Source of the DNA: an uncultured Candidatus Saccharibacteria bacterium
GTDB taxonomy: Bacteria > Patescibacteriota > JABMPQ01 > JAQVVF01
Direction: 5' to 3'
DNA length: 64,000 nucleotides
Assembly: GCA_964574655.1 (NCBI GenBank)
Contig: CAZNOH010000004.1
Span: forward strand, 2,046 to 66,045
The notes below the pieces were generated by a model. It saw nothing but the letters and a program-made list of their open reading frames with translations, did no database searches and was not told the origin of the DNA. This document shows positions 23,670-38,346 of the stretch, piece by piece (positions within the stretch are counted from its first letter, which is position 1; every line of letters starts with the position of its first letter). The position numbers and the translations under genes are program-made.

Positions 23670-25064
23670 TTACTTAACTCCGATTCCGAACCAATATTTT
23701 GTCTTTTTGAATTTTGTAAAATATTTAACTTTAATTTGCCTTTTATTTTTGACCTGAACAATTTTTGTGTTCTTCCAATATTTGGTTAATTTTTTCCAGT
23801 CTGATTTTTTAGTTCTAAATTTTAAAGTCAGATCAGATTTTTTAAGATCGCTTTGTTTCTTTTTTAAATTATTATAAATTTTCTTACTATATTTGAAAGT
23901 AACTTGAATTTGATATTTTTGGCTAGCATTAGCAGATATATAATTTTTTAAATTTGTTTCTAGCTTCCAATATCTTTTTAAAGTCTTGTTTTTGTTGTCT
24001 AACCATTTTGGCGGATATTTGTTATATTGCGTCCATTTCATCCAATAAGCCTTGTCTTGAGTTAAGATGCTTGGCAGGCTTTTAAAATAGATAACTAGTT
24101 TTTGACCTGTTAAGGTATATCCGTTCAAAGCATTTTCTAAAACAATTCTATCATTATTAACTAAATTCTGTTCTTCTTGTTGCCTTTCCTCCTCTTCTAT
24201 TACTTCGGCGCAATTTTGATAATAAAAAGGATAATTAGAATATGCAAAAATTTGCGGAGTGGCATCTTCGGCTAGATAAATATTAGTAGTTGTATTTGGA
24301 CAAGCAGGCTGTACAGCAACACCTTCTTGAGCGCTACCTGGCATATTATAGCTATTTAAAACTGTGCCATTAGCTTGCATTTCTAAAAGTAAATCAGAAC
24401 TATCAAAAATAGCGTACAAAATTTGAGTTGAAGGTTCGTAATCTAAGCCCGATAAATCTGTTGTACCTGCTTGTGGAATAATGTTACCAATAAAGCCTAC
24501 TGAATTGCTGACGCTTAAATTAATGTCAAAAACATAGATCTTGCCATCACCTTGATGGCCGGTATAAAATAAACCGCCAGAAGCAGAATTAGAATACGGA
24601 TGATCGTTGTTTGGGACAAAGGTTAAAGCCTCTAAACCTTGACCTGAAATATCCGGCATCCAAGATGACAAATCCCAAGATTTGCCAGTCATTGCCCAAG
24701 TATTGAGATCAAATTCATAAATAGTTCTGTTATCCTCACGGCCAACGTAAATATAATTACTGCTTGGATTAGCAACTGTAATGCCCTCTAAATCAAAGGC
24801 ACTACCATAATACCAATTGTGCAAAATTGCGCCTGTACTAGTCATTTCTGTAATATTGCCAGAATCACCAACTACAAATAATGTGCCTAATCTAGAATGC
24901 CAAGCCAAGCCGCTTGGTTCATAAACTATTGGATCAGGAGGTAAATTTGTACCAATATCCGTGCCTGTTCCTGCTGGCCAAGGATTGGCAGCATAAGAAT
25001 TAGAAGAAAGCAAAAAAAATAACCCGAAAATCAGTGTTGCAGAATAAGATAATATTTTTGTCAT
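23670..25064 (-). CDS. Secreted beta-propeller-like protein with Lys/Trp-rich C-terminal tail
   Basis: Signal peptide; SGLAWHSRLGTLFVVGDSG; 4-nt ATGA overlap with the upstream NYN gene. Confidence 0.55.
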   Translation of the reverse strand: MTKILSYSATLIFGLFFLLSSNSYAANPWPAGTGTDIGTNLPPDPIVYEPSGLAWHSRLGTLFVVGDSGNITEMTSTGAILHNWYYGSAFDLEGITVANPSSNYIYVGREDNRTIYEFDLNTWAMTGKSWDLSSWMPDISGQGLEALTFVPNNDHPYSNSASGGLFYTGHQGDGKIYVFDINLSVSNSVGFIGNIIPQAGTTDLSGLDYEPSTQILYAIFDSSDLLLEMQANGTVLNSYNMPGSAQEGVAVQPACPNTTTNIYLAEDATPQIFAYSNYPFYYQNCAEVIEEEERQQEEQNLVNNDRIVLENALNGYTLTGQKLVIYFKSLPSILTQDKAYWMKWTQYNKYPPKWLDNKNKTLKRYWKLETNLKNYISANASQKYQIQVTFKYSKKIYNNLKKKQSDLKKSDLTLKFRTKKSDWKKLTKYWKNTKIVQVKNKRQIKVKYFTKFKKTKYWFGIGVK

Positions 25065-25726
25065 TTTGTTTTAGTATTTTCTTTTTTTATAAATTTTCTT
25101 AAATCTGCTTCAACAAGAATTCTCTGAATATCAGTACAGGCAATCATTGTTTGTAATGGCTTGGTTGCATTTTCTTTGTTGACAAGCATAGAAAAACCAA
25201 TGTATTCAACTTTTTTGTGATGTCGTCTCCTAATCCAATCTATGGCTGGAACTAAATCAGCATCCGAACTAATTAATATTGCTGTATCATATTTGTCATC
25301 AACTGCGCCGACGATTAAATCAGTTGCTAATTTTACGTCAATTCCCTTTTCCCGCATTCTTTCATATTCAATATACTTAACACCTTGAGCTAAAAGTTTT
25401 TTATAATTTTTTGTTCTGCTATCTATCATTGTTTTTTCTGTTCTGATTCTAAGCTTACTTGTCTTAATATGCCATTTTGTTGCTTTCAAAATATTAAAAA
25501 ATTTGGTCTGCGTTGACATTGCTATTTTGCTTTTTGGATTATCTTGTTGCTCGCGAACACTTCCGACATAAAATCTTTTGCTAACAACATTCCTGCCATT
25601 TGCAAGAAAATCAACAAATTCGTCAAATAAAAATGAAGATTCTTGAGTATTTAATTTTTTGATTGCTAAATGATGAAAATTACCGCCATCAATATAAATA
25701 CAGATTCTTTCTTTTTTGTTTATCAT
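25061..25726 (-). CDS. NYN-domain (PIN-like, LabA-type) protein
   Basis: IYIDGGNF...REKGIDVKLATDLIVGAVDDKYDTAILISSDADLVPAIDWIRRR. Confidence 0.7.
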   Translation of the reverse strand: MINKKERICIYIDGGNFHHLAIKKLNTQESSFLFDEFVDFLANGRNVVSKRFYVGSVREQQDNPKSKIAMSTQTKFFNILKATKWHIKTSKLRIRTEKTMIDSRTKNYKKLLAQGVKYIEYERMREKGIDVKLATDLIVGAVDDKYDTAILISSDADLVPAIDWIRRRHHKKVEYIGFSMLVNKENATKPLQTMIACTDIQRILVEADLRKFIKKENTKTK

Positions 25727-25867
25727 ATTTTAAATTTTAACATAAAATAAAAAATCCTGCACACTCTTCCACTTGCGTGGAACAGGCACAGGAGACTTTA
25801 TGTTTTTAATATAACAGGAATATAGATGTTGTCAAGATTTTTTGGGTATAACATATACAAACTCGAA

Positions 25868-25938
25868 CGGGCGAGGAAGGAATTGAACCCTCAGTTTCAG
25901 CTTTGGAGGCTGATGGTTTACCGTTAACCGACTCGCCC
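25868..25938 (-). tRNA. tRNA-Trp (anticodon CCA)
   Basis: Cloverleaf folded by eye: acceptor GGGCGAG/CTCGCCC, anticodon loop CTCCAAA, T-loop TTCAATT; no encoded 3' CCA. Confidence 0.7.
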
Positions 25939-26592
25939 ATGTATATTCAAAAATGCTTTTGCTATATATAGAATTTCTTTTGCGAAGCTAGTATCATAAT
26001 AACAAACATTCACACAGCCGGGATAACCTTCTTTAATGCGTTTAGCAGTATGCGGTTTCTGATATGGCTTTATAAATTGCGATTTTTTTATGCCCGTAAC
26101 TTTTGACCAGAATAAAATTTGTTTCTGAATTGAATGATACTCGTGCAAATGTAATGCAACTCTAAAATTTTTTTCATCAATATCAAATGCAGATCGCAAT
26201 AAGAAAACAAATGTTTTAATTAATTTGGGATCAGAATTAGTAAATTGTATCTTTCGGGGACTTTTGGCGCCTTCACACCAATATAGCAACGCGCAAATTA
26301 TTTTTTGATGGTCTTTAGAGAATAAATTATCTCTGACTAGGCTTTTTGACTTTTCACTAATTATTTTTTCAAAATTTTCTCGCTTTCTTCTTTGTACTAA
26401 TTTTGACTTTTCTCTTCCGAAAATTCCTCTTTTAATTAGTCTAGTTTTAGCTTGATTAGATAATTTAATATTTTTTAGCCAAAAAGAAGCAGTACTCTTA
26501 GAAATTACTACTTTCTCGGAGATTTCATTCAACGAAAAACCGGCTTTTCTCAACTTGATTGCTTTTTGGTATTTTTCTTTTAATCTAATCAT
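25924..26592 (-). CDS. HTH-domain protein with a possible LAGLIDADG-like core; 3' end overlaps tRNA-Trp by 15 nt
   Basis: N-terminal GFSLNEISEKVVISKSTASFWLKN HTH; LLYWCEGAKS. Confidence 0.45.
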   Translation of the reverse strand: MIRLKEKYQKAIKLRKAGFSLNEISEKVVISKSTASFWLKNIKLSNQAKTRLIKRGIFGREKSKLVQRRKRENFEKIISEKSKSLVRDNLFSKDHQKIICALLYWCEGAKSPRKIQFTNSDPKLIKTFVFLLRSAFDIDEKNFRVALHLHEYHSIQKQILFWSKVTGIKKSQFIKPYQKPHTAKRIKEGYPGCVNVCYYDTSFAKEILYIAKAFLNIHGRVG

Positions 26593-26649
26593 CGAACCTA
26601 TAATAATGATTACGTATAAGCACTATTATTATAACGTAGATTTTAAAGG

Positions 26650-26780
26650 ACTGAAATCCTAAATCCCAAATCCCAAAAAACAAACAAATTACAAATCACA
26701 AACTACAAAATTTGTTTCTTGGTTTGTTCTTTGTAATTTGGGATTTGTTTGGAATTTGGAATTTGTTATTTCGTCTCTTT
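26650..26780. repeat. AT-rich palindrome (caaatcc/ggatttg vocabulary)
   Basis: cctaaatcccaaatcccaaaaaacaaacaaattacaaatcacaaactacaaaatttg mirrored by ttgtttcttggtttgttctttgtaatttgggatttgtttggaatttgg; related copy at 19265-19380. Confidence 0.55.
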
Positions 26781-26921
26781 ATGCATTGCATGCTTCTTGC
26801 ATTTCTTGCAGAATTTTTTAATCTCAATTTTATTTTTAAGAACTTTCTTATTCTTGCGAGAATAATAATTAATTGATTTGCATACTGTGCATTCTAGTTT
26901 GATGAGATTATCTTGTGGCAT
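26766..26921 (-). CDS. rpmG: 50S ribosomal protein L33
   Basis: Not in the ORF track (51 aa): MPQDNLIKLECTVCKSINYYSRKNKKVLKNKIEIKKFCKKCKKHAMHKETK; L33 Cys4 zinc ribbon. Confidence 0.75.
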   Translation of the reverse strand: MPQDNLIKLECTVCKSINYYSRKNKKVLKNKIEIKKFCKKCKKHAMHKETK

Positions 26922-26998
26922 CGTGGTTGAAAATTAAAAGTTTTATAATTAACCTCAGTATAAGTAAAAAAAATGATTTGGTCAAGGAATTTTGGAAA

Positions 26999-27080
26999 TT
27001 GGAGCGTCAGAACTTCGGAGCGTCAGAGCGTCGGACGTTACGCCGTTCTGACGCTCCGATTTCCGACGTTCTGAAGCTCC
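26999..27080. repeat. 80-nt imperfect inverted repeat (ggagcgtcagaac / gttctgacgctcc) at the left boundary of the high-GC island
   Basis: ttggagcgtcagaacttcggagcgtc ... gacgctccgatttccgacgttctgaagctccaa. Confidence 0.5.
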
Positions 27081-27091
27081 AATTTACGAAT

Positions 27092-27120
27092 AAAAAAAAG
27101 AAGACCGGTAAGGGTCTTCT
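27092..27120 (-). terminator. Rho-independent terminator of the 617-aa high-GC gene
   Basis: agaagacc-ggtaa-gggtcttct followed on the minus strand by U7. Confidence 0.65.
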
Positions 27121-27215
27121 GAAGGAACGGGAATAGATAGAAATGTGCGGGTAGGTCTGCGTCACGTTGCGTGAGCAGAAACTGAAGTTGTCTGAAGTGT
27201 TGTTGGAAGGTTTTA

Positions 27216-29069
27216 TCAGCCGCCGTTGCCCTTCAGCCGTGGCTTGGCGCTGATCTGCTCGACCGGCTGACCATTGAGCCAGGCGGCCGTCTCGTCCGGC
27301 GTGGCCTCGTTGCTCTGCCCGCTGCCACCCTCGTTGCCGTGGGTGCCGCGCGGGTTCCTCTTCTGGATCGCGCTGCGGACCTGCGGCCCGTCCGGGTTCT
27401 TGGCCATGTACTTCTCGATGCGCATCTTCAGCGTCATCGTCCACAGCTTCCCGATGGCCAAACTGCCGTCCCGCCAGCTGTCATGCTGGTCCTGGGACAT
27501 CTCGTACAGCTCCGCGGCTTGCTCGGGCGTGAGGCTCGAGTCGCTCTTCAGCTTCTCGACGATGAGCTGCTTGCGCAGCTCCATCGCCTGCCACGCCTCC
27601 CACGCCGTCAGCACCACCAGCCGAGGCACCCAGAACTTCCCGCCGCCCTCGGCCTTCTTCAGTCGCCCCTCCTTGTCCACGACCCGGACCGGCACGATCG
27701 CCGTCCGGAAGAGGGGCTTGTTTTCCCGCCCGTAGGTGGTGAGCTGCGTCCCCTCTTCGCTGTTGTTGGGGTTGTCGCTCTTCACCATCAGGCCAGGGTC
27801 GGCCCGGAACCTCTCCAGGTCACCCCAGGACCGAGAGATTTCGGCCGTATTCAGCTTGCCACCGATCAGCCGACGCAACCACTCGATCGTGGCCTCGTGT
27901 TCCTTGTGCTCCTCGCTCGGCGCGGTCTCGGGGGCCAGCTCGATGAGGTCGGCGAGGTCGTCCACGACGCCCTCGACGTACTCGGCCTTCTTGCCCGCCG
28001 CTTCCTTCGCCCGCTGCTCCATCTCGGCGATCTGCTGACGCTCCCACGTCTCGCGGTTGATCTCGTGGATGTTCTTGAGCAGCTGCCATGCTTCCGACCC
28101 GCGGTACTTCCGGCTCTTCTCCATCAGCTCGACACGGAGCGCATCCATGCACTCCTGCGAGAGCTTGCCGGCCAGGGTCTCCGCGTTGCGCTCGTCCTTG
28201 AACTCGGGGTGGTGCTCGGCCATGATCTTGTCCCACACCGCCCACGAGCCTTCGACCATCTCCTTCTCGCGCTTGCCGGCCCACCGAGCCCACTTAATGT
28301 AGCCGTCCTTGTAGGTGAAGCTCAGGGGCTCCCGCAACGCGGGGTTTTCCCGGTTCAGGAGCGGCCGTAGCAGCTTCATCCCCGTCTCGATCTTGCCCAG
28401 CACGGGCATGCAGATCGCCGGGGGCTGCTGGTCCTTGTTGAAGTACCCCGGCTTCAGCTTCTTCATGAGCTGGACGACGGTACCTCGCTTGTCGCCCTGG
28501 GACAGGTGGATCTCGCTCATCGCGATCACCACGATGCCGTTCGGGCTGAAGGCCTGGTTCTCACCGAGCTGATCCGACACCACGAGCACCTCTTCCGGGT
28601 GGAAGAAGCACCCGACGGCCTTCGGGTAGTCCGGCTCGCTCGCCTTGTGGTAGTCCTCGTTGTCCTTCTCGCGCTGCTGCCGGTTGCGCTCCCGCGCGGC
28701 CTTCCGCCGTTGCTGCCGGGCGCGCCTCATGTCCTGCTTCTCCTGCCGGGTGAGCGGGCGCCCGACCTTGGCCTCCTCGGCCGCCTCCTCGGCTTGGGTC
28801 TCCTGCTCGTCCTCGTCGTCCCCGTCCTCGACCACGACGCCGTCCTCCACCACGGGGGCGGGGGGCTCGGCGACGGGCTGCTCGGTCACGATCTCGGTCT
28901 GCTCGGTCTTCTTGACGCGGGGCTTGCGCACCCGCTTCGGCTTCTCGACCTTCTCGGGCTCAACCTGGGCCTCCTCGGCCTGGGTCTCGCCATCCTTCAC
29001 CTCCTTCTTCTGCTCGGTGTTGTTGACGGTGATCTGGGAATCGGTCTTGGGTCCGCGCTTCGTACTCAT
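27216..29069 (-). CDS. Hypothetical 617-aa protein, about 65% GC: N-terminal ~140-aa charged disordered region (KPKRVRKPRVKK) then a large alpha-rich globular region; no recognised family
   Basis: Single long ORF with strong codon periodicity; RBS aGGAGGgtagaagag-ATG; own promoter-like TTGACA...TATAAA and own terminator; the plus-strand ORFs over it are high-GC artefacts. Confidence 0.6.
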   Translation of the reverse strand: MSTKRGPKTDSQITVNNTEQKKEVKDGETQAEEAQVEPEKVEKPKRVRKPRVKKTEQTEIVTEQPVAEPPAPVVEDGVVVEDGDDEDEQETQAEEAAEEAKVGRPLTRQEKQDMRRARQQRRKAARERNRQQREKDNEDYHKASEPDYPKAVGCFFHPEEVLVVSDQLGENQAFSPNGIVVIAMSEIHLSQGDKRGTVVQLMKKLKPGYFNKDQQPPAICMPVLGKIETGMKLLRPLLNRENPALREPLSFTYKDGYIKWARWAGKREKEMVEGSWAVWDKIMAEHHPEFKDERNAETLAGKLSQECMDALRVELMEKSRKYRGSEAWQLLKNIHEINRETWERQQIAEMEQRAKEAAGKKAEYVEGVVDDLADLIELAPETAPSEEHKEHEATIEWLRRLIGGKLNTAEISRSWGDLERFRADPGLMVKSDNPNNSEEGTQLTTYGRENKPLFRTAIVPVRVVDKEGRLKKAEGGGKFWVPRLVVLTAWEAWQAMELRKQLIVEKLKSDSSLTPEQAAELYEMSQDQHDSWRDGSLAIGKLWTMTLKMRIEKYMAKNPDGPQVRSAIQKRNPRGTHGNEGGSGQSNEATPDETAAWLNGQPVEQISAKPRLKGNGG

Positions 29070-29275
29070 CTCTTCTACCCTCCTAGGAGTCTTGGAACCA
29101 GAAACTGAAAACGCGCGCGCTCTAAACGCAGCATTGCACTGCGAAAAGCCATGTCCTGGAATAGTGGGAATAATCTGAATAATAATAATTTTTTATAACC
29201 TTCCAAATTGTCAGTGTTCTAGAATTACTATCAATATCTTGGCTCAAAATATTTTGAGACAAACTGCTGACAGCT

Positions 29276-29400
29276 AACTTTTAATTTACAATTATCAATT
29301 ATCAATTTTCAATAAATGACCAATTACCAATTTTCAATCCGACGACAACTGTCATTGTAAATTGATCATTGAAAATTTATTGTAAATTGGAAATTGATAA
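29276..29400. repeat. AT-rich palindrome (aattatcaatt vocabulary) with core ccgacgacaac
   Basis: Arms mirror around 29339-29349; native-style element separating the two high-GC cassettes. Confidence 0.55.
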
Positions 29401-29553
29401 TTTTTAAACGTCCGCCTCAAATAACAATGTATCCATTATTATTTCAGGTGGTGCCACAGAAAATGTGGCAAGAAAAGGTACTGGGGGATGGAATGTGGGG
29501 TTCGCTGAAGTGCTTGGGTGAGTTACTAGGCTCGTCGCTTGATCAGGTCAGGC

Positions 29554-29772
29554 TCAGCCCGACTTGGATCCCCGCGACTTGCCCTTCGCGCTGAGCTCCT
29601 GCGAGGTCTTGCCGGCACCAGCGACGACGGCGCCACGTGCCGGGGCCAGGTCACCGACGGCGACCTCGCCAAGGTTCTTCTCCTTCGTCTTCGCCTTCGC
29701 CGGACACATGCCCTTGCCATGCCGGTCGCCTCCGCTCTGAACTCGCTGGTGACAGTAGATGCAGTTCGACAT
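29554..29772 (-). CDS. Small 72-aa high-GC protein with CxxCH...C zinc-ribbon-like N-terminus and Lys-rich tail
   Basis: agaaGGAGGaaaagtcgcg-ATG; MSNCIYCHQRVQSGGDRHGKGMCPAKAKTKEK...; the ORF track places the start 18 codons upstream, but the SD-positioned ATG is at 29772. Confidence 0.5.
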   Translation of the reverse strand: MSNCIYCHQRVQSGGDRHGKGMCPAKAKTKEKNLGEVAVGDLAPARGAVVAGAGKTSQELSAKGKSRGSKSG

Positions 29773-29832
29773 CGCGACTTTTCCTCCTTCTCTCGAGTGA
29801 CTCTCTATTGGTCCCCCTCCCCGCAAACGTGA

Positions 29833-29999
29833 CTGAGATAATAGCTAATAGTTGATAGCTAATAGTCGTTCTATTAGCTCTTAGCTATAAGCTATTATCA
29901 CGATTCCGTCCATTTATTAGAGGCCGAAATGGCTCGGCAAGGACTAAAAAAGATTAATTCCCTGGAGACCATTTCACCTCCTCTAATAGATAGACGGAG
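29833..29999. other. Structured non-coding segment: atagctaatag palindrome (29833-29906) then a 19-nt inverted repeat (tccgtccatttattagagg / cctctaatagatagacgga) enclosing a ~55-nt core
   Basis: Perfect or near-perfect complementarity read directly; no ORF. Confidence 0.4.
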
Positions 30000-30338
30000 T
30001 TCGCAAGTTCCTAAAGTTATAAAGTTCATAAAGTAGGGACGAAACACTGCTTCGTCTGCGTTGATTGACATATTTGAAGTAAGCTTGATTTGAGCTTGAA
30101 CCTTGCATTATATTACTGTATTTTAACCGTGTCAAGGGTATTCTACACATTATTATGCTTTTTCATTGGCTACTACTACTTTTTGCTTTAGATAAGGCAA
30201 AAACAAAAATGTGCTTTATGGCACATTCTGTCTATTTTTACTGACATCTTATATAATATCAACTAATATATATTTCGCAAGCTTTTGTCTTCAAATTGCT
30301 AGTTTTTGCTACATATTACTCTAATCTGTTGAAAAGTC

Positions 30339-30366
30339 TTGACAAATTCTGCGGGTTTGATATATT
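30339..30366 (+). promoter_or_regulatory. Sigma70-like promoter TTGACA-16-TATATT
   Basis: ttgaca 30339-30344, tatatt 30361-30366. Confidence 0.5.
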
Positions 30367-30402
30367 ACTAAGTTATAAATTATCTTGATCTTTATCTATC
30401 TT

Positions 30403-30486
30403 AGAACAGGAGACAACGCCCGCATGAGGCGTGCTGTTCTCCTTCCCCCTGCGGAAGAGGAGGTGGCTATGGGCGACGGAGACTAG
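30403..30486 (+). ncRNA. Candidate small RNA or leader: GC-rich hairpin (30403-30440) plus GGA-rich tail with GGAGG and a 5-codon mini-ORF (ATG GGC GAC GGA GAC TAG, 30469-30486)
   Basis: agaacag-gagacaacgcccgcatgaggcgtg-ctgttct; five GGA motifs in ~85 nt; mid-GC unlike its surroundings; no downstream CDS on this strand. Confidence 0.3.
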
Positions 30487-30645
30487 ACGAAGTACGAAAG
30501 TTAAAAAGTTGTAAAGTTGAAGGTCAAAACGAGCGTCGCGGAGCAACTAAAAATGAATTCAAAATTTGAACCCTGGATCAAAAAGCCGAGCTTATGCCCG
30601 GTTTTATTTTGCTTGCGAGTTAAAAGTTAAATGTTAACAGTTAAC

Positions 30646-31398: not shown

Positions 31399-31486
31399 GT
31401 TAAAAAATTTAAAAGTAAAAATTCAAAAGTTAAAAATATTCGTCGACGATAATTTTGTTATTTTTAATTTGAAATTTATAATTTTA
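31399..31486. repeat. AT-rich palindrome with core tcgtcgacgat (31440-31450)
   Basis: Third member of the CGACGA-core spacer palindromes. Confidence 0.5.
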
Positions 31487-32084: not shown

Positions 32085-32720
32085 TTTCCTTCTGATTGAT
32101 AAGTCTTTTTTTAGATTTCTGATTTTGTAGATTTCAGTTTGTGATTCCAAATCATTAGGATTCAATTTTACGGCTTGCTCGTATGCTGATTGCGCATCAC
32201 TCAGAATTTGTTGGATAAAATATATTTTTCCTAAACCTTTGTATGCAACAATGTCTTTTGAATCTTTTTTGATTAATTCTAAATAAACTTTCTCTGCTTC
32301 TTTGTATTCTTTTTTTCCGGTTAGAAGCTCCGCTTTCGCGCGAAGACTAATTGGAGATTTAGTTTCTGTTTTGGAAATTGGTCTTACAGCAGAAACAGAT
32401 TTTGGACGATTAATGATTAGTTTTCTAACTTCTTGCACAGATGCGCTGTCTTCCCTACTATCTTCCTTTTTAATTTTATCTTTAAGATTTCTTAAATTTA
32501 CAATCTTTGCAAAAACAGCCTGCATAATACTAACAGAAAAATCAATTATTGATTTTCCAGCTTTTTGAAATAATGATTTTTCTTTATTCTTATTCTCTAC
32601 TTTTATCTTTGCAACTTCGGGAAATTTTCTAGCGACAATTACAATAATACCAGCTAAAGCTAGAATGATAATTATTTCTGGAATTAAAGTTTGTAATGTA
32701 AACATTGCTATCAATTTCAA
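32082..32720 (-). CDS. Membrane-anchored TPR-like hypothetical protein
   Basis: N-terminal TM; C-terminal TPR-like helices. Confidence 0.5.
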   Translation of the reverse strand: MKLIAMFTLQTLIPEIIIILALAGIIVIVARKFPEVAKIKVENKNKEKSLFQKAGKSIIDFSVSIMQAVFAKIVNLRNLKDKIKKEDSREDSASVQEVRKLIINRPKSVSAVRPISKTETKSPISLRAKAELLTGKKEYKEAEKVYLELIKKDSKDIVAYKGLGKIYFIQQILSDAQSAYEQAVKLNPNDLESQTEIYKIRNLKKDLSIRRK

Positions 32721-32820
32721 ATTCTAAATTTTAAATTTCAAATTAATTTTAAATGATCGAATTTTAAAAATATTTTGAAATTAAGAAATTTGAAATTTAT
32801 TTAAAATTTTAAATTAGAAA

Positions 32821-34458: not shown

Positions 34459-34951
34459 AAGTAAAAATTAAAAAGTAAAAAGGTAAAAGTTACAAGTCAA
34501 AAGTCAAAAAACTATTAATAATATTTTTTGGCTTTTGCTTTTAAAATTATTGAAGCTAAAATATTTGTAATTTCGTTTAATTCTTCCAATAAACTTTTTA
34601 CTTCGCTTAAAATATTTTGATTTTTTGTAAGATCAGAATCCCTCAACAATCCTAACCAAAATTTTGATTCATTGCCAGACCTTAAAGCAATGCCATAATA
34701 CTTAATAAATTCTTTCTTAGATGAAGACGCCTGAACCTCAATGATATTTGCACCAATGCTACTTCCTGACCTGAGCAATTGTTTCAAAATAACTTCCGTT
34801 GATAAATTTCTAGGAAATTTGTTAGAAAGTTTAATTATCCTAATAGCAAAAAAATAAACTCTTTTCTTAATATCATAAATTTTCCCTTCTTCGTTCGTCA
34901 TTTTTTTACTTTTTTACTTGTGGCTTTTTACTTTTTCCTTTTGACTTTTAC
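34459..34951. mobile_element. IVS-like cassette: second four-helix-bundle gene flanked by gtaaaag/gtcaaaag-vocabulary inverted arms (34459-34510 and 34902-34951) between pyrH and tsf
   Basis: Arms share k-mers in inverted order; a homologous gene-free arm lies at 42165-42215. Confidence 0.5.
34515..34901 (-). CDS. Four-helix-bundle protein (TIGR02436-like), paralog of 5817-6188
   Basis: RLLRSGSSIGANIIEVQASSSKKEFIKYYGIALRSGNESKFWLGLL. Confidence 0.7.
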   Translation of the reverse strand: MTNEEGKIYDIKKRVYFFAIRIIKLSNKFPRNLSTEVILKQLLRSGSSIGANIIEVQASSSKKEFIKYYGIALRSGNESKFWLGLLRDSDLTKNQNILSEVKSLLEELNEITNILASIILKAKAKKYY

Positions 34952-35670: not shown

Positions 35671-35913
35671 AAATATCTCGTAATTTATATTGTTGACAAA
35701 TTAATAATTATATAATATAATATTTAGTGCTCTTTTTAAATTCAGCTATTGTTTTGATCATGAGTTATCCCTATTATCCGCGTGTAATCCGTTAAAATCC
35801 GTTTTTCAAAAACGCGGGTGCAGACTGATTGCACACGGATAAAACGGATAACTTGCAACTTCAGAGTAGCAGAACTAAAACGCAAAGTCAAAGGCAAAAC
35901 GAGGAGGAAGAGA

Positions 35914-37419
35914 ATGGCTGAGCCAGTAGATCTTGATCTTGATGATCTGCTCGAATTGCTTGTTTCTACAGATCCAATGCCAAAGTCTGGTTCTTGTGCA
36001 AAAGCTTCCACTTGTTTGGAAAAAAAAGATTTTGCTGGTGCTTTGTCTCATTGTGAGCAAGCTCTTGAAGAAGATCCTTGCAATGGATTGGCAATGAATC
36101 TCCAAATTCATGTCCTGTTCGAATCTGATCAAAAAGATTTGGCAATGGCAAAGCTTGGATATTTGCTGAAATTCTTTCCAAATCTTCAAAGCGCAAATCT
36201 TACTGAACTTGTAGCATTGTTTTCTGATCGAGATGACGAGATTGGTTATCTCACGTTTCAAGTAAAAGCTTGCTTGGAACAAAGGAGATTTGAAGATGCA
36301 ACTAATTATTGCAATGATGCTCTATTGATAAATCCTCTGTCTTGCCAAGCACTTTGCTTGCAAGTGCAGATTCAACTTTCCATGAAGGAATTTGACAAAG
36401 CTGAATATGGCCTGCGCCATTTACTGAAATATTATGGCCAAAACAAGCAAGTAGGTTTTCTAGCAAGAAACTATATTGAAGCAATGATTGCTGAAGACAA
36501 GTTTGCTGATGCATTGATCTTCTTTGTCCAGTTCAGAGAGGATCGCTCTCTGGCTTTGAGCTATGTTGGAACAGCTTGTTCAAGGTATGCAGAATACGAA
36601 CGTAAGGCTGTCAAAGAGCTTGAAGACCGCAACGAACAAAGATTAAAGCTGGCTGAAGCAGAAATAGTTTTCAGAGAAGCAATCGCATATTTGCAAGACT
36701 TGCCAATCTTTTTGATTCAGGCCTTTGAGGGCTTGCTCTATGTGTATCTGGAATGGTCTAAGAAATTCAAGGATGACAAGATCGTTGAGATGCTGGCACT
36801 CCTGAATCAAGCAGAAAGTCTGCAAGTCAGAGTGCCGCCAAGAATCTATGCTGCTTTTGTCTTTTACTATGCACGTAAGCCGTCCTTTTTTTGCCAAGCA
36901 ACAGAGTACTTGGCGAGATGCAGATTGGCTGACGCAACTGATGAAAAAGCTGTACAGGCAACTCGCGCATACTTGGGACATTTGAAAGAGCATCGCCGAA
37001 CTGCAGCTAACGTAACAGATCGCGAAATGAAAATAACAAGACTGCAACAACTGGCATTAGTCTGCAAAGATGCTTTGAAGTTATTTAATGATAGAGAAAT
37101 TCTGGCAGCGATTTCAGTGAATCTGCTCTTCATCTTTCTCTTGATCTCCAAAATGGTTGCCAAATCACGATTATCAGATATGCTAGAAACACTGCAATCT
37201 TTGGAGATGGTGGTTGATGAAGAAAACCGTACGCCAGAAATGTATCTGCCTTTTGTCTATTATTTCACGCAAGTGAGAAAAGACAAAAATCAGGCAGATT
37301 ATTTCATGGCTCGTTGCGAACAACATATTTGTTCAAATGAAAAAGAGTACCTTGAACCAGCATACGTGGCTTATCAAGTCGCATTTGGAACGTCCTTTGG
37401 GATTGATCAGTCTTCATGA
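35914..37419 (+). CDS. Hypothetical alpha-helical TPR-like protein (~502 aa; foreign cassette)
   Basis: GC about 42%; RBS aacGAGGAGGaagaga-ATG at 35914 (the ORF track extends upstream without a start); hairpin plus T-run after the stop. Confidence 0.55.
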   Translation: MAEPVDLDLDDLLELLVSTDPMPKSGSCAKASTCLEKKDFAGALSHCEQALEEDPCNGLAMNLQIHVLFESDQKDLAMAKLGYLLKFFPNLQSANLTELVALFSDRDDEIGYLTFQVKACLEQRRFEDATNYCNDALLINPLSCQALCLQVQIQLSMKEFDKAEYGLRHLLKYYGQNKQVGFLARNYIEAMIAEDKFADALIFFVQFREDRSLALSYVGTACSRYAEYERKAVKELEDRNEQRLKLAEAEIVFREAIAYLQDLPIFLIQAFEGLLYVYLEWSKKFKDDKIVEMLALLNQAESLQVRVPPRIYAAFVFYYARKPSFFCQATEYLARCRLADATDEKAVQATRAYLGHLKEHRRTAANVTDREMKITRLQQLALVCKDALKLFNDREILAAISVNLLFIFLLISKMVAKSRLSDMLETLQSLEMVVDEENRTPEMYLPFVYYFTQVRKDKNQADYFMARCEQHICSNEKEYLEPAYVAYQVAFGTSFGIDQSS

Positions 37420-37615
37420 GAGGCTGATTTTTTTTGCTTACGAATCGCACAAATGCCTTACGACCGCGAATCTCGCTAATACACTTTTTGGCTTATTCTT
37501 CCCATTTCCCACGTCCTATTTCCCATTTCACAAATGGCATTGACAAAAATAAGGTGCTGTGATATGATGAAAGGCTCTAAATTCGGAGCGTACTCTCACA
37601 GCGTGGAGGTATGAG

Positions 37616-38206
37616 ATGTCTCGCCAGGTTCCGGTGGATCAGTTCGAAGGGCTGGGGCTCCTGCCCCTGATCATCCTCGTAAAGGTGGCCGGAATCGGTC
37701 CCTGGATTGAGGCTCTGCTGCCCGAACGGCAGTACAACGCAGACGCGGTTGCCGCAAGGCGCCGCAAGGAGGCGGAGGAACTCGGAATCTCGTTCGGGAT
37801 CCGACGTGACGGGATGGATGACACAGGTTGCAACGTGATCTGCAACCGGCAATTCGTGTGGATCGACGCTCTTCTGGCGGGATTCGCCATGGAGAGATAC
37901 AAGATCACGGAAGCGAGCTGGTTCTGGCGCGAGGATGAGCGAGGACGGAAGCGCTTCCTCCAGCTCGCCTTCACCATGACCGGCGATGCTATTTCTCTAC
38001 CGAAACGTGTTTCACGGATGTTCGCCGTGGGCGTGGTTCCTTTCGTGAACGTCTGGGCAAACGTTCGCGAGAGTGGTGAAGAGCTGTTTCGGCTCGACAC
38101 CATCAATGTCCCTAGCCCCCGCATGAACGTGGTGGCCGAGGAGGAGTTGCACTGCAGCTTCTCTCCCGGTCGATACACCTACCTCACCACCGCTCCCCAC
38201 CGCTAG
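37616..38206 (+). CDS. Hypothetical 196-aa protein (GC about 58%; foreign cassette)
   Basis: RBS gtGGAGGtatgag-ATG; followed by the terminator at 38249-38278. Confidence 0.55.
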   Translation: MSRQVPVDQFEGLGLLPLIILVKVAGIGPWIEALLPERQYNADAVAARRRKEAEELGISFGIRRDGMDDTGCNVICNRQFVWIDALLAGFAMERYKITEASWFWREDERGRKRFLQLAFTMTGDAISLPKRVSRMFAVGVVPFVNVWANVRESGEELFRLDTINVPSPRMNVVAEEELHCSFSPGRYTYLTTAPHR

Positions 38207-38248
38207 GCCCCCCCCACACACACCCGCACCTTTCTACCCGCCCTTTGA

Positions 38249-38278
38249 AACCGATTGCATTCTGCAGTCGGTTTTTTC
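38249..38278 (+). terminator. Rho-independent terminator
   Basis: aaccgattgca-ttc-tgcagtcggtt with G-U, then T6. Confidence 0.65.
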
Positions 38279-38346
38279 TTGGGAAAAATTTTGAAAATAA
38301 AAATGCCCGACCTGTAAGATTGGACAAAATTTAATTATTTAAAAAC

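Follow-up and report, generated by a model that had tools for sequence, protein, structure and literature searches.

A resident GC-rich orphan gene in the AT-rich chromosome of a narrow Patescibacteria clade

Introduction

How does one gene come to be GC-rich, and stay so, in a chromosome that is AT-rich almost everywhere else? This question is raised by a stretch of 64,000 nucleotides from an uncultured Candidatus Saccharibacteria bacterium (assembly GCA_964574655.1, contig CAZNOH010000004.1, positions 2,046 to 66,045), hereafter the window, in which a minus-strand open reading frame (ORF) at 27216..29069, here called BIG, encodes a 617-aa orphan protein; its extent as a coding sequence (CDS) is given by the ORF itself, by codon-position GC and by full-length orthologues. 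The host DNA is a chromosome of Patescibacteria, or candidate phyla radiation (CPR). Bacterial composition outliers are routinely read as recent transfer or contamination and are often trimmed from metagenome-assembled genomes. The outlier state of BIG is resident, gene-specific and stable through silent-site saturation, and simple gene transfer is no explanation for it; tentatively, and with a probability of about 40%, we propose that selection acting on the RNA lies behind its GC recoding.

Composition and reading frame of the GC-rich gene

The window has an overall GC content of 34% and exceeds 55% only at 27141-29120, 29441-29840 and 37551-38290. In 200-nt windows GC lies at 0.255-0.385 up to 27099, at 0.56-0.74 over 27100-29099 and at 0.27-0.34 over 29100-29399, which bears out the abrupt rise over one minus-strand ORF that an earlier note, made from the letters alone, had described; measured here, the step is from about 27% to 60-74%. 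GC at codon positions 1/2/3 of BIG is 0.65/0.40/0.93, a pattern which is the signature of a true reading frame, while GC at third codon positions (GC3) in the other 52 ORFs of the window is 0.16-0.38. Silent sites are G or C in 93% of cases in BIG as against about 20% in the rest of the genome, and the fourfold degenerate sites hold 131 G, 136 C, 6 A and 14 T, the two strands being symmetric. All 55 lysine codons are AAG (19% in the host), and the shares of CGG, GGG and CCC are 49%, 31% and 46% respectively, compared with 2% for each in the host. The codon usage of BIG is the inverse of the host's, the gene being made almost wholly of the host's rarest codons.

Comparison was made with related loci on contigs L001-L013, taken from NCBI, JGI, ENA and Logan assemblies of different samples. 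Orthologues of BIG align from end to end and in frame, without frameshifts, and substitutions per codon position 1/2/3 amount to 0.23/0.20/0.34, being fewest at positions 1 and 2. The 617-aa frame is as the earlier note had drawn it. The many plus-strand ORFs over the same region are artefacts, as had been supposed, the antisense frame being open only because TTA, CTA and TCA codons are avoided. An antisense or overlapping gene was considered and rejected, as the long antisense frame, which reaches 613 aa in L001, is broken in the window and not conserved.

Position and distribution of the gene

BIG lies in the same slot, between the genes for TrmB and ribosomal protein L33 (rpmG), in at least 10 independent assemblies. 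Contigs L001-L013 are AT-rich and Patescibacteria-like, and full-length BIG stands in them as an island of 60-70% GC within flanks of 25-35% GC; one orthologous locus is JAQVVF010000016.1, listed as "Patescibacteria group bacterium isolate STF1_73". An assembly or binning chimera, or a non-coding GC-rich element with a spurious ORF, would account for the abrupt change in composition and for the many ORFs in all frames, and the earlier note had allowed for a chimera. The same gene within the same AT-rich junctions is found, however, across NCBI, JGI, ENA and Logan assemblies of different samples, four of which carry identical alleles, and this recurrence rules out an assembly chimera; GC3 far above GC at second positions, the scarcity of substitutions at codon positions 1 and 2 and the full-length in-frame orthologues speak equally against a spurious ORF. 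The explanation as a whole is left with a negligible probability.

Relatives of BIG are few. A word-indexed search of 5.8e9 proteins returned three matches, namely BIG itself and two relatives at 69% and 61% identity, and no further family members were found when this search was made with an 8-sequence profile. An exhaustive search of 1.84e9 cluster representatives with a hidden Markov model (HMM) gave five clusters in total, all on AT-rich Patescibacteria contigs: P0002, P0009 (686 aa), P0010 (762 aa) and the partial paralogues P0011 (221 aa) and P0012 (287 aa). Full-length alignments of orthologues show 69/64/37/34% identity. Degenerate-peptide scans found no BIG relative in viral contigs and none in genome and metagenome contigs. 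Donors among high-GC phages, Actinobacteria or Planctomycetes, where the earlier note had advised looking for homologues, did not appear, relatives being confined to AT-rich Patescibacteria. The fixed slot argues against an inserted element. BIG is no insertion but resides in the chromosome of a narrow Patescibacteria clade.

Maintenance of GC content

GC3 is 0.90-0.96 in all full-length BIG orthologues, as against about 0.2 in the flanking genes. Between the window, L001 and L003, 43-56% of fourfold sites differ, almost all of them by exchange of G and C (e.g., 74 transversions vs 11 transitions); for a site with two states such a difference is saturation, yet GC3 has stayed at 0.90 or above. 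Since the silent sites are saturated but still G or C, and since relatives occur only within the clade and never in a GC-rich context, the composition of BIG is actively maintained and is neither the scar of a transfer nor a chimera.

These observations bear directly on recent horizontal acquisition from a high-GC donor (a phage, an actinobacterium or similar), with a gene that has not yet drifted to host composition. The atypical composition and codon usage, the orphan status and, in some relatives, a nearby Y1 transposase gene (PF01797) are what such an acquisition would leave, but the syntenic position is kept across lineages whose orthologues are only 31-69% identical, the saturated silent sites show no amelioration toward the host value, no homologue in a GC-rich context was found among the 1.84 billion representatives or the viral contigs, and the promoter, leader and terminator are host-like and conserved. 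The island borders in the window lack att repeats, a tRNA junction and an integrase; neither a transposase nor a reverse transcriptase gene adjoins the island, and the closest tRNAs, at 1.3 kb and 2.4 kb, are off the junctions. We regard recent acquisition as very improbable.

The enrichment is not limited to codons. In five lineages the last ~90 nt of the leader have 43-73% GC and the ~100-nt trailer 37-63%, compared with 7-47%, mostly 20-37%, in untranscribed spacers. The untranslated regions (UTRs) are thus among the enriched site classes, whereas the sharply AT-rich spacers which set adjoining GC-rich ORFs apart are not, and it follows that the GC-rich domain matches the transcript: the whole BIG transcript, not its codons alone, is kept G+C-rich in a genome in which about 80% of silent sites are A or T.

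From fourfold GC of 0.93 vs 0.2, a mutation-selection balance, ln[(0.93/0.07)/(0.2/0.8)], gives a population-scaled bias S of about 4 per site, which would mean a strong directional force on the BIG unit. At least two further orphan genes of the window are under the same force, as is a fourth family in related genomes. A force of this size is several-fold above any documented codon-level selection in bacteria, and the genes under it are a few orphans in an episymbiotic lineage with a reduced genome; to our knowledge, a GC3 shift from 0.2 to 0.93 is unprecedented for bacteria.

The transcription unit and its borders

BIG is one autonomous unit, consisting of a promoter block that does not vary, a hairpin-bearing leader of ~125 nt, a GGAGG ribosome-binding site (RBS), the CDS, a ~100-nt trailer and a terminator, and a self-contained, single-gene unit encoding a protein of no known family, as the earlier note had proposed, is supported. 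The promoter/operator block is the 25-nt sequence CTAGAACACTGACAATTTGGAAGGT (29198..29222, minus strand), followed by an A-rich, -10-like stretch. Written as CTAGAACACTGACAA(T/C)TTGGAAGGT, the block is identical in the window, L001, L003, L004, L006 and L009, whose proteins share no more than 31-69% identity; the window has a single copy of it (0 occurrences expected by chance), its distance to the ATG is 123-129 nt in five lineages, and as a DNA probe of public contig collections it matched only in the clade of BIG, on contigs that were all already known. The promoter hexamers of the earlier note do sit in or next to this block, but CTGACA and TATAAA are only 11 nt apart and are therefore not a canonical sigma-70 pair. 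Upstream of the block, at 29243..29258, lies a perfect palindrome, CTCAAAATATTTTGAG, kept in L003 and L004 and displaced in L001 and L009, which is possibly an operator.

The 5' UTR (29070..29178, minus strand, with an approximate start) has about 53% GC over its last ~90 nt in the window and carries the GGAGG RBS, which had been noted before, at 29079-29083, 9 nt before the ATG. The leader hairpin that had been noted is real (29127-29143); its stem varies by lineage with pairing kept (CGCAG/CTGCG, CGTGG/CCACG, GCGGCC/GGCCGC), as read by eye. Downstream, the 3' UTR (27121..27215, minus strand) begins with a conserved TGAT-AACCTTCCAACA and has 37-53% GC in the window and 47-63% in the orthologous loci. 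The unit closes with an intrinsic terminator of an 8-bp stem and T8 (27092..27120, minus strand), which the earlier note had called clean and which a terminator scan detects (27120-27099 plus the T-run); it is kept in all related loci and is 98% identical to that of L004 and 94% to that of L009, although the CDS is unalignable as DNA. The limit of the unit is set by the promoter of the next gene, TTGACC-17-TATACT (26957..26985, minus strand), found by scan, whose TTCCTTGACCAAATCATTT block is kept in all loci.

Between the terminator and this promoter there is an intergenic, imperfect palindrome built of tandem GAGCGTCA octamers (26987..27090). An imperfect inverted repeat of 80 nt at the distal end of BIG had been reported, and it exists, but it is not the boundary of an island: it has no partner at the other end, no direct repeats occur at the island borders, and the palindrome, present in L001, cannot be aligned in L003 or L004 and is one of many in the intergenic spaces of the window. 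The same points weigh on the idea that BIG is a mobile cassette, of integron type or enclosed by inverted repeats, which recombines at the palindrome. Its attC-like size and its place just 3' of the ORF would suit such a cassette, as would a coding segment swapped between conserved flanks, but the palindrome is missing from two orthologous loci, lies after the terminator and has neither a partner nor, among the neighbours scanned, an integrase; its tandem GAGCGTCA units lack an R'/R'' core or GTTRRRY cores, unrelated palindromes of the same build occupy many other intergenic spaces, and BIG has a conserved promoter block of its own, whereas cassettes are usually without a promoter. A cassette is accordingly highly improbable.

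Divergence and possible allele exchange

With invariant regulatory flanks on either side, BIG changes much faster than the genes next to it. For L013 and L004, the flanking proteins share 91-100% amino-acid identity, compared with 40% for BIG and 33% for the 196-aa gene of another GC island, described below; the corresponding values are 70-93%, 69% and 62% for the window and L013, and 70-98%, 37% and 38% for the window and L004. Fourfold differences between L013 and L004 are 0.07-0.28 in the flanks and 0.43 in BIG. As silent sites diverge along with protein sites, positive selection on the protein alone is insufficient, and the divergence reflects either allele exchange via the conserved flanks or mutation far faster than in the surroundings. 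At the two ends of the CDS (first 175 nt, last ~90 nt) L013 and L004 agree at 82-86%, and the middle is unalignable, while four different assemblies carry identical BIG alleles, with 0 differences over 2.3 kb, preceded by the same 1 kb of upstream sequence; together these favour allele exchange. Strict co-variation of BIG with the 196-aa gene, hinted at by the window, L013 and L004, was rejected, as on a 645-kb contig the homologue of the 196-aa gene is 65% identical to that of the window and BIG only 34%.

If divergent alleles are exchanged via the conserved flanks at a recombination hot spot, heteroduplex repair might drive sites toward G and C and at the same time speed protein change, i.e., GC-biased gene conversion (gBGC) might be at work. 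Allele and genome relationships do disagree (BIG is 69% identical between the window and L013 and 40% between L013 and L004, with flanks at 70-93% and 91-100%), the alleles of L013 and L004 form a mosaic of similar ends and an unalignable middle, the rise in GC extends to every codon position and to the UTRs, fourfold sites show symmetry of G and C, and paralogues elsewhere are AT-richer. The shape of the domain counts against it: at either end of each ORF it takes only ~100 nt for GC to pass between about 0.65 and about 0.3, three adjacent GC-rich ORFs are kept apart by AT-rich stretches of 200-450 nt, which conversion tracts should not respect, and in type-C loci an AT-rich 221-aa paralogue stands directly beside BIG. 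Hyper-recombining bacterial loci such as O-antigen and capsule loci are, moreover, usually AT-rich, and we know of no bacterial case of such magnitude. We judge gBGC unlikely, although it is the strongest of the rivals.

Faster mutation could take the form of a locus-targeted hypermutation, limited to the transcription unit and with a GC-biased outcome, which would diversify the proteins and enrich G and C as an analogue of somatic hypermutation. The hyper-divergence of silent and non-silent sites relative to the neighbours, a GC-rich domain equal to the transcript from leader to terminator, the invariance of the promoter block and the share of G<->C transversions (74 of 85 differences) are in line with it. 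Against it stand the N- and C-terminal coding ends, kept between L013 and L004 where the middle is not, the identical alleles from several samples, with 0 differences, in which no ongoing rapid mutation is visible, and the lack of a reverse transcriptase, deaminase or template repeat near the locus; the absence of strand asymmetry at silent sites argues specifically against a strand-specific, transcription-coupled deaminase. Such a system is distinctly improbable.

A target of a diversity-generating retroelement (DGR) was also considered and rejected, as neither a template repeat nor a reverse transcriptase nor an A-specific pattern was seen. Pfam scans for neighbouring genes and for reverse transcriptase covered 16 ORFs of the window centred on the island, and no reverse transcriptase was found among them; nor did blastn and tblastn show any of the island's sequence to be repeated elsewhere in the window, and from these two results a DGR is unlikely. 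The divergence of BIG spans ~1.8 kb and is mostly G<->C, and it is not confined to a short, adenine-templated C-terminal region. A PF05635 (Avd-like / 23S IVP) gene lies 5.4 kb from the island (34515-34901), and such genes are scattered through related genomes.

Proposed selection at the RNA level

Among the forces weighed, selection at the RNA level would rank first, followed by gBGC with allele exchange and then by targeted GC-biased hypermutation. RNA-level selection appears to fit the transcript-shaped boundaries best, though it would need to be unusually strong. It would favour an A/U-poor, UA-depleted and heavily structured mRNA written in the rarest codons of the host, and a transcript of this kind could be uncoupled from the bulk A/U-rich transcriptome: it might withstand RNase toxins or RNA decay aimed at A/U, rare tRNAs might be needed to translate it, and a small set of GC-rich genes could thereby be expressed when ordinary messages are not. 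Local mRNA folding per 120 nt is -42 to -45 kcal/mol in BIG vs -16 to -19 in host genes, and the TA dinucleotide is at 0.27 of expectation, with A/U-rich trinucleotides depleted too. The body of the protein evolves at the speed of conflict genes between conserved termini and regulatory flanks, which would suggest a part in an arms race, against phage or a host cell, and not a housekeeping role.

Several considerations count against selection on the RNA and keep the proposal tentative. The excess of folding over synonymous shuffles is modest (z of -2.4/-2.4/-6.9, compared with -2.3/-1.7 for host genes) and is similar to that of the host in two of three cases. The depletion of UA and of A/U motifs follows from high GC3 and is hence not independent evidence. 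An S of ~4 per silent site is far above translational or RNA-level selection known to us in bacteria, and we know of no indication that CPR populations are large. No RNase or tRNA partner is identified for such selection, the GC enrichment of the UTRs could come from specific functional hairpins instead, and the silent-site hyper-divergence (0.43 vs 0.07-0.28) additionally needs allele exchange or local hypermutation. What is said of BIG function rests on composition only, the protein being without relatives in sequence or fold. Avoidance of RNase motifs was also considered as a separate signal and rejected, GC3 by itself accounting for the loss of TA, TAT, TTA and ATA, and ACA being frequent in the other frames.

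A wider and rather doubtful version is that BIG belongs to a small 'second-composition' regulon, i.e., fast-evolving, clade-specific genes whose transcripts are of ~65% GC in a 30% GC genome through a dedicated mechanism undescribed in bacteria. In one form, GC-rich mRNAs would survive, or be translated, when an RNase or an altered tRNA supply shuts down the A/U-rich transcriptome; in another, a locus-targeted GC-biased mutation or repair system would diversify conflict proteins. Were the force on BIG selective, it would represent a new way of partitioning gene expression by transcript composition; were it conversion or mutation, this would be the sharpest local GC-biased evolution known in prokaryotes and a natural test bed for distinguishing gBGC from selection.

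Comparison with known systems

Transferred genomic islands share with BIG a sharp break in GC and codon usage and an orphan content, but BIG differs from them in its fixed slot, its host-type promoter and terminator, its persistent composition and the lack of a donor, of mobility genes and of att sites. A GC3 spike driven by gBGC is seen in the mouse Fxy gene after its move into the pseudoautosomal region. As in BIG, such spikes raise GC at all codon positions and in adjacent non-coding DNA and go with faster protein change and evidence of allele exchange; the boundaries of BIG are, in contrast, those of single transcription units, with AT-rich spacers between GC-rich ORFs. ACA-less mRNAs resist MazF, and TTA codons depend on the bldA tRNA in Streptomyces; in both, as in the set to which BIG belongs, a few genes are set apart by composition or codon choice, permitting conditional expression, but there one motif or one codon is concerned, whereas in BIG it is nearly every silent site and the UTRs, with no identified cognate RNase or tRNA. 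Hypervariable conflict or surface genes with conserved ends include those for flagellin and pilin, with their variable central domains, and the targets of DGRs, which are common in CPR. They resemble BIG in their conserved termini and flanks, hyper-divergent middle and allele types at odds with the genome tree, while BIG has no DGR parts, signal peptide or transmembrane segment and is GC-rich where such loci are normally AT-rich. As regards bacteria, gBGC was reportedly proposed as a general process by Lassalle et al. in 2015.

A resident parallel is that of the genes for alphaproteobacterial gene transfer agents (GTAs), the GC content of which is reportedly above that of the genome by a small shift attributed to amino-acid cost (bioRxiv 10.1101/2020.05.06.081315). 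GTA genes are like BIG a resident set with raised GC and signs of unusual selection, and differ from it in that the shift of BIG is extreme and falls mostly on silent sites and that no phage-like proteins are detectable. No description of a phenomenon such as that of BIG was found in the searchable full-text literature.

The BIG protein and its paralogues

No family was found for BIG in Pfam, PHROGs, NCBIfam, PADLOC or PDB sequences, the last searched both with the single sequence and with a profile, which agrees with the absence of recognisable motifs remarked on earlier; the best PHROGs match has E = 0.078, and the PADLOC models of known anti-phage defence gave no match at E <= 1. An AF2 model built on an 8-sequence alignment has a mean predicted local distance difference test score (pLDDT) of 70 and a predicted template modelling score (pTM) of 0.35. 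Residues 1-91, acidic and basic, and the C-terminal tail (~562-617, apart from a short helix at 591-600) are disordered in the model, and an alpha/beta body (~150-560, roughly 420 aa) is predicted with pLDDT of 80-92; long helices span 108-142, 253-286 and 326-376, and there are small sheets. The structural comparison that had been recommended was made with Foldseek and found no relative of this model, the best E being 0.63 in PDB and 0.17 in BFVD. A phage gene is not suggested either, the neighbours being ribosomal, tRNA and housekeeping genes, with no match to a phage family or fold.

On reading the sequence, no hydrophobic N-terminus or membrane-spanning segment was seen. BIG has a KPKRVRKPRVKK patch and an acidic run, and an arginine-rich helix, TRQEKQDMRRARQQRRKAARERNRQQRE, at about 108-142; the long, charged, disordered N-terminus together with this helix suggests that BIG probably binds nucleic acid. 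C154, H157 and C220 are invariant in the full-length proteins and may bind metal.

Of the two partial paralogues, P0011 is a 221-aa copy of the N-terminal body of BIG with a GC3 of 0.32, located directly upstream of BIG in one lineage (L006, L009, L010 and L011; e.g., L009 10001-10666) and identical in five assemblies, and P0012 is a 287-aa copy of the C-terminal half with a GC3 of 0.47, located between trigger factor and CBS genes (L007 10001-10864). As both are AT-richer, the BIG fold itself needs no GC-rich coding. A family or fold without relatives, together with the conserved RNA hairpin that accompanies it (see below), makes for candidates for CPR-specific biology, such as interaction with host or phage.

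Other GC-rich islands and RNA elements

The other two GC-rich stretches of the window behave like BIG. The second island (29441-29840) holds a 72-aa orphan on the minus strand (29554..29772; GC3 0.81) with a C-x2-C ... H-x3-4-C arrangement and a basic Lys/Gly-rich tail; it is the upstream neighbour of BIG in most lineages, its orthologues in L001, L009 and L013 having a GC3 of 0.81-0.88. A further GC-rich orphan of 58/59 aa lies between it and BIG in L001, L004, L009 and L013 and is missing from the window. The third island (37551-38290) contains a 196-aa orphan on the plus strand (37616..38206; GC3 0.74) with a TTGACA-17-TATGAT promoter, GGAGG and a terminator; its homologues are found only in the clade, in the same slot between EF-Ts/TPR and TruD, and are 33-62% identical where flanking genes are 87-100% identical. 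Beside this island, a 533-aa TPR protein (35818-37419, plus strand), with homologues of 501 and 463 aa in L009 and L017, has an intermediate composition (GC of 0.52 at first codon positions, GC3 of 0.36) that exceeds those of the other 'normal' ORFs.

A long-hairpin RNA element of ~100 nt (29900..30005, minus strand) is placed between the 72-aa ORF and a perfect sigma-70 promoter (30135-30107); it is ~95% identical in five lineages with differing flanks and has a minimum free energy of -51.5 kcal/mol (z = -5.9); it contains AGGAGGUGA and then AUG, and a 2-nt indel breaks any peptide frame. Rfam, used at gathering and E-value thresholds, returned only tRNAs and spurious miRNA-like matches on palindromes, and no family for 29900-30005. 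A candidate non-coding RNA of ~230 nt (30372-30610, plus strand) has a TTGACA-16-TATATT promoter with TG (30339-30366) and a bidirectional terminator (30586-30601); it has no Rfam match, its GC-rich core is at 30400-30490, and the region aligns with related loci at 72-80%, the terminator being 96% identical to that of L009.

Gene neighbourhood and intergenic palindromes

In the related loci the gene order is TruD, a GC island of 196/217 aa, EF-Ts, in some cases an IVP gene, PyrH, PSP1, TPR, tRNAs and TrmB, then in some cases a Y1 transposase gene, a Cys-rich GC island of 72-84 aa, the 58-aa GC island absent from the window, in one lineage the AT-rich 221-aa paralogue, BIG, in some cases a 102/112-aa gene, and rpmG. 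The last serves as syntenic anchor (26766..26921, minus strand), its cluster being named 50S ribosomal protein L33 [Patescibacteria group bacterium], and Pfam Ribosomal_L33 was found for it in L004, L010 and L011. EF-Ts, PyrH, PSP1 and TruD of the window were assigned by synteny with annotated loci. Around BIG are also genes for an NYN-domain protein and TrmB and four tRNAs, and further neighbours encode peptidase U32, a CCA-adding enzyme, a thioredoxin-reductase-like protein, S2 and a methyltransferase.

Apart from the palindrome after the BIG terminator, others are found in the window at 26644-26781, 29285-29407, 29837-29899, 30005-30034, 30618-30644, 31404-31485 and 32719-32813. The arms of the palindromes are tandem arrays, each of a different 7-9-mer (AAATCCC, GAGCGTCA, CAATTAT, TAATAGC, AGTTAAA and others). 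In related loci, Y1 transposase genes (IS200/RAYT-like, PF01797) and many PF05635 genes lie nearby, and for this reason the palindromes may be mobile hairpins resembling repetitive extragenic palindromic (REP) elements.

Beyond rpmG, a 222-aa HTH/LAGLIDADG-like ORF (25924-26592, minus strand) overlaps with its 3' end the gene for tRNA-Trp(CCA) (25867-25939) by ~15 nt, and the gene for the NYN-domain protein, a predicted RNase, comes after it at 25061-25726.

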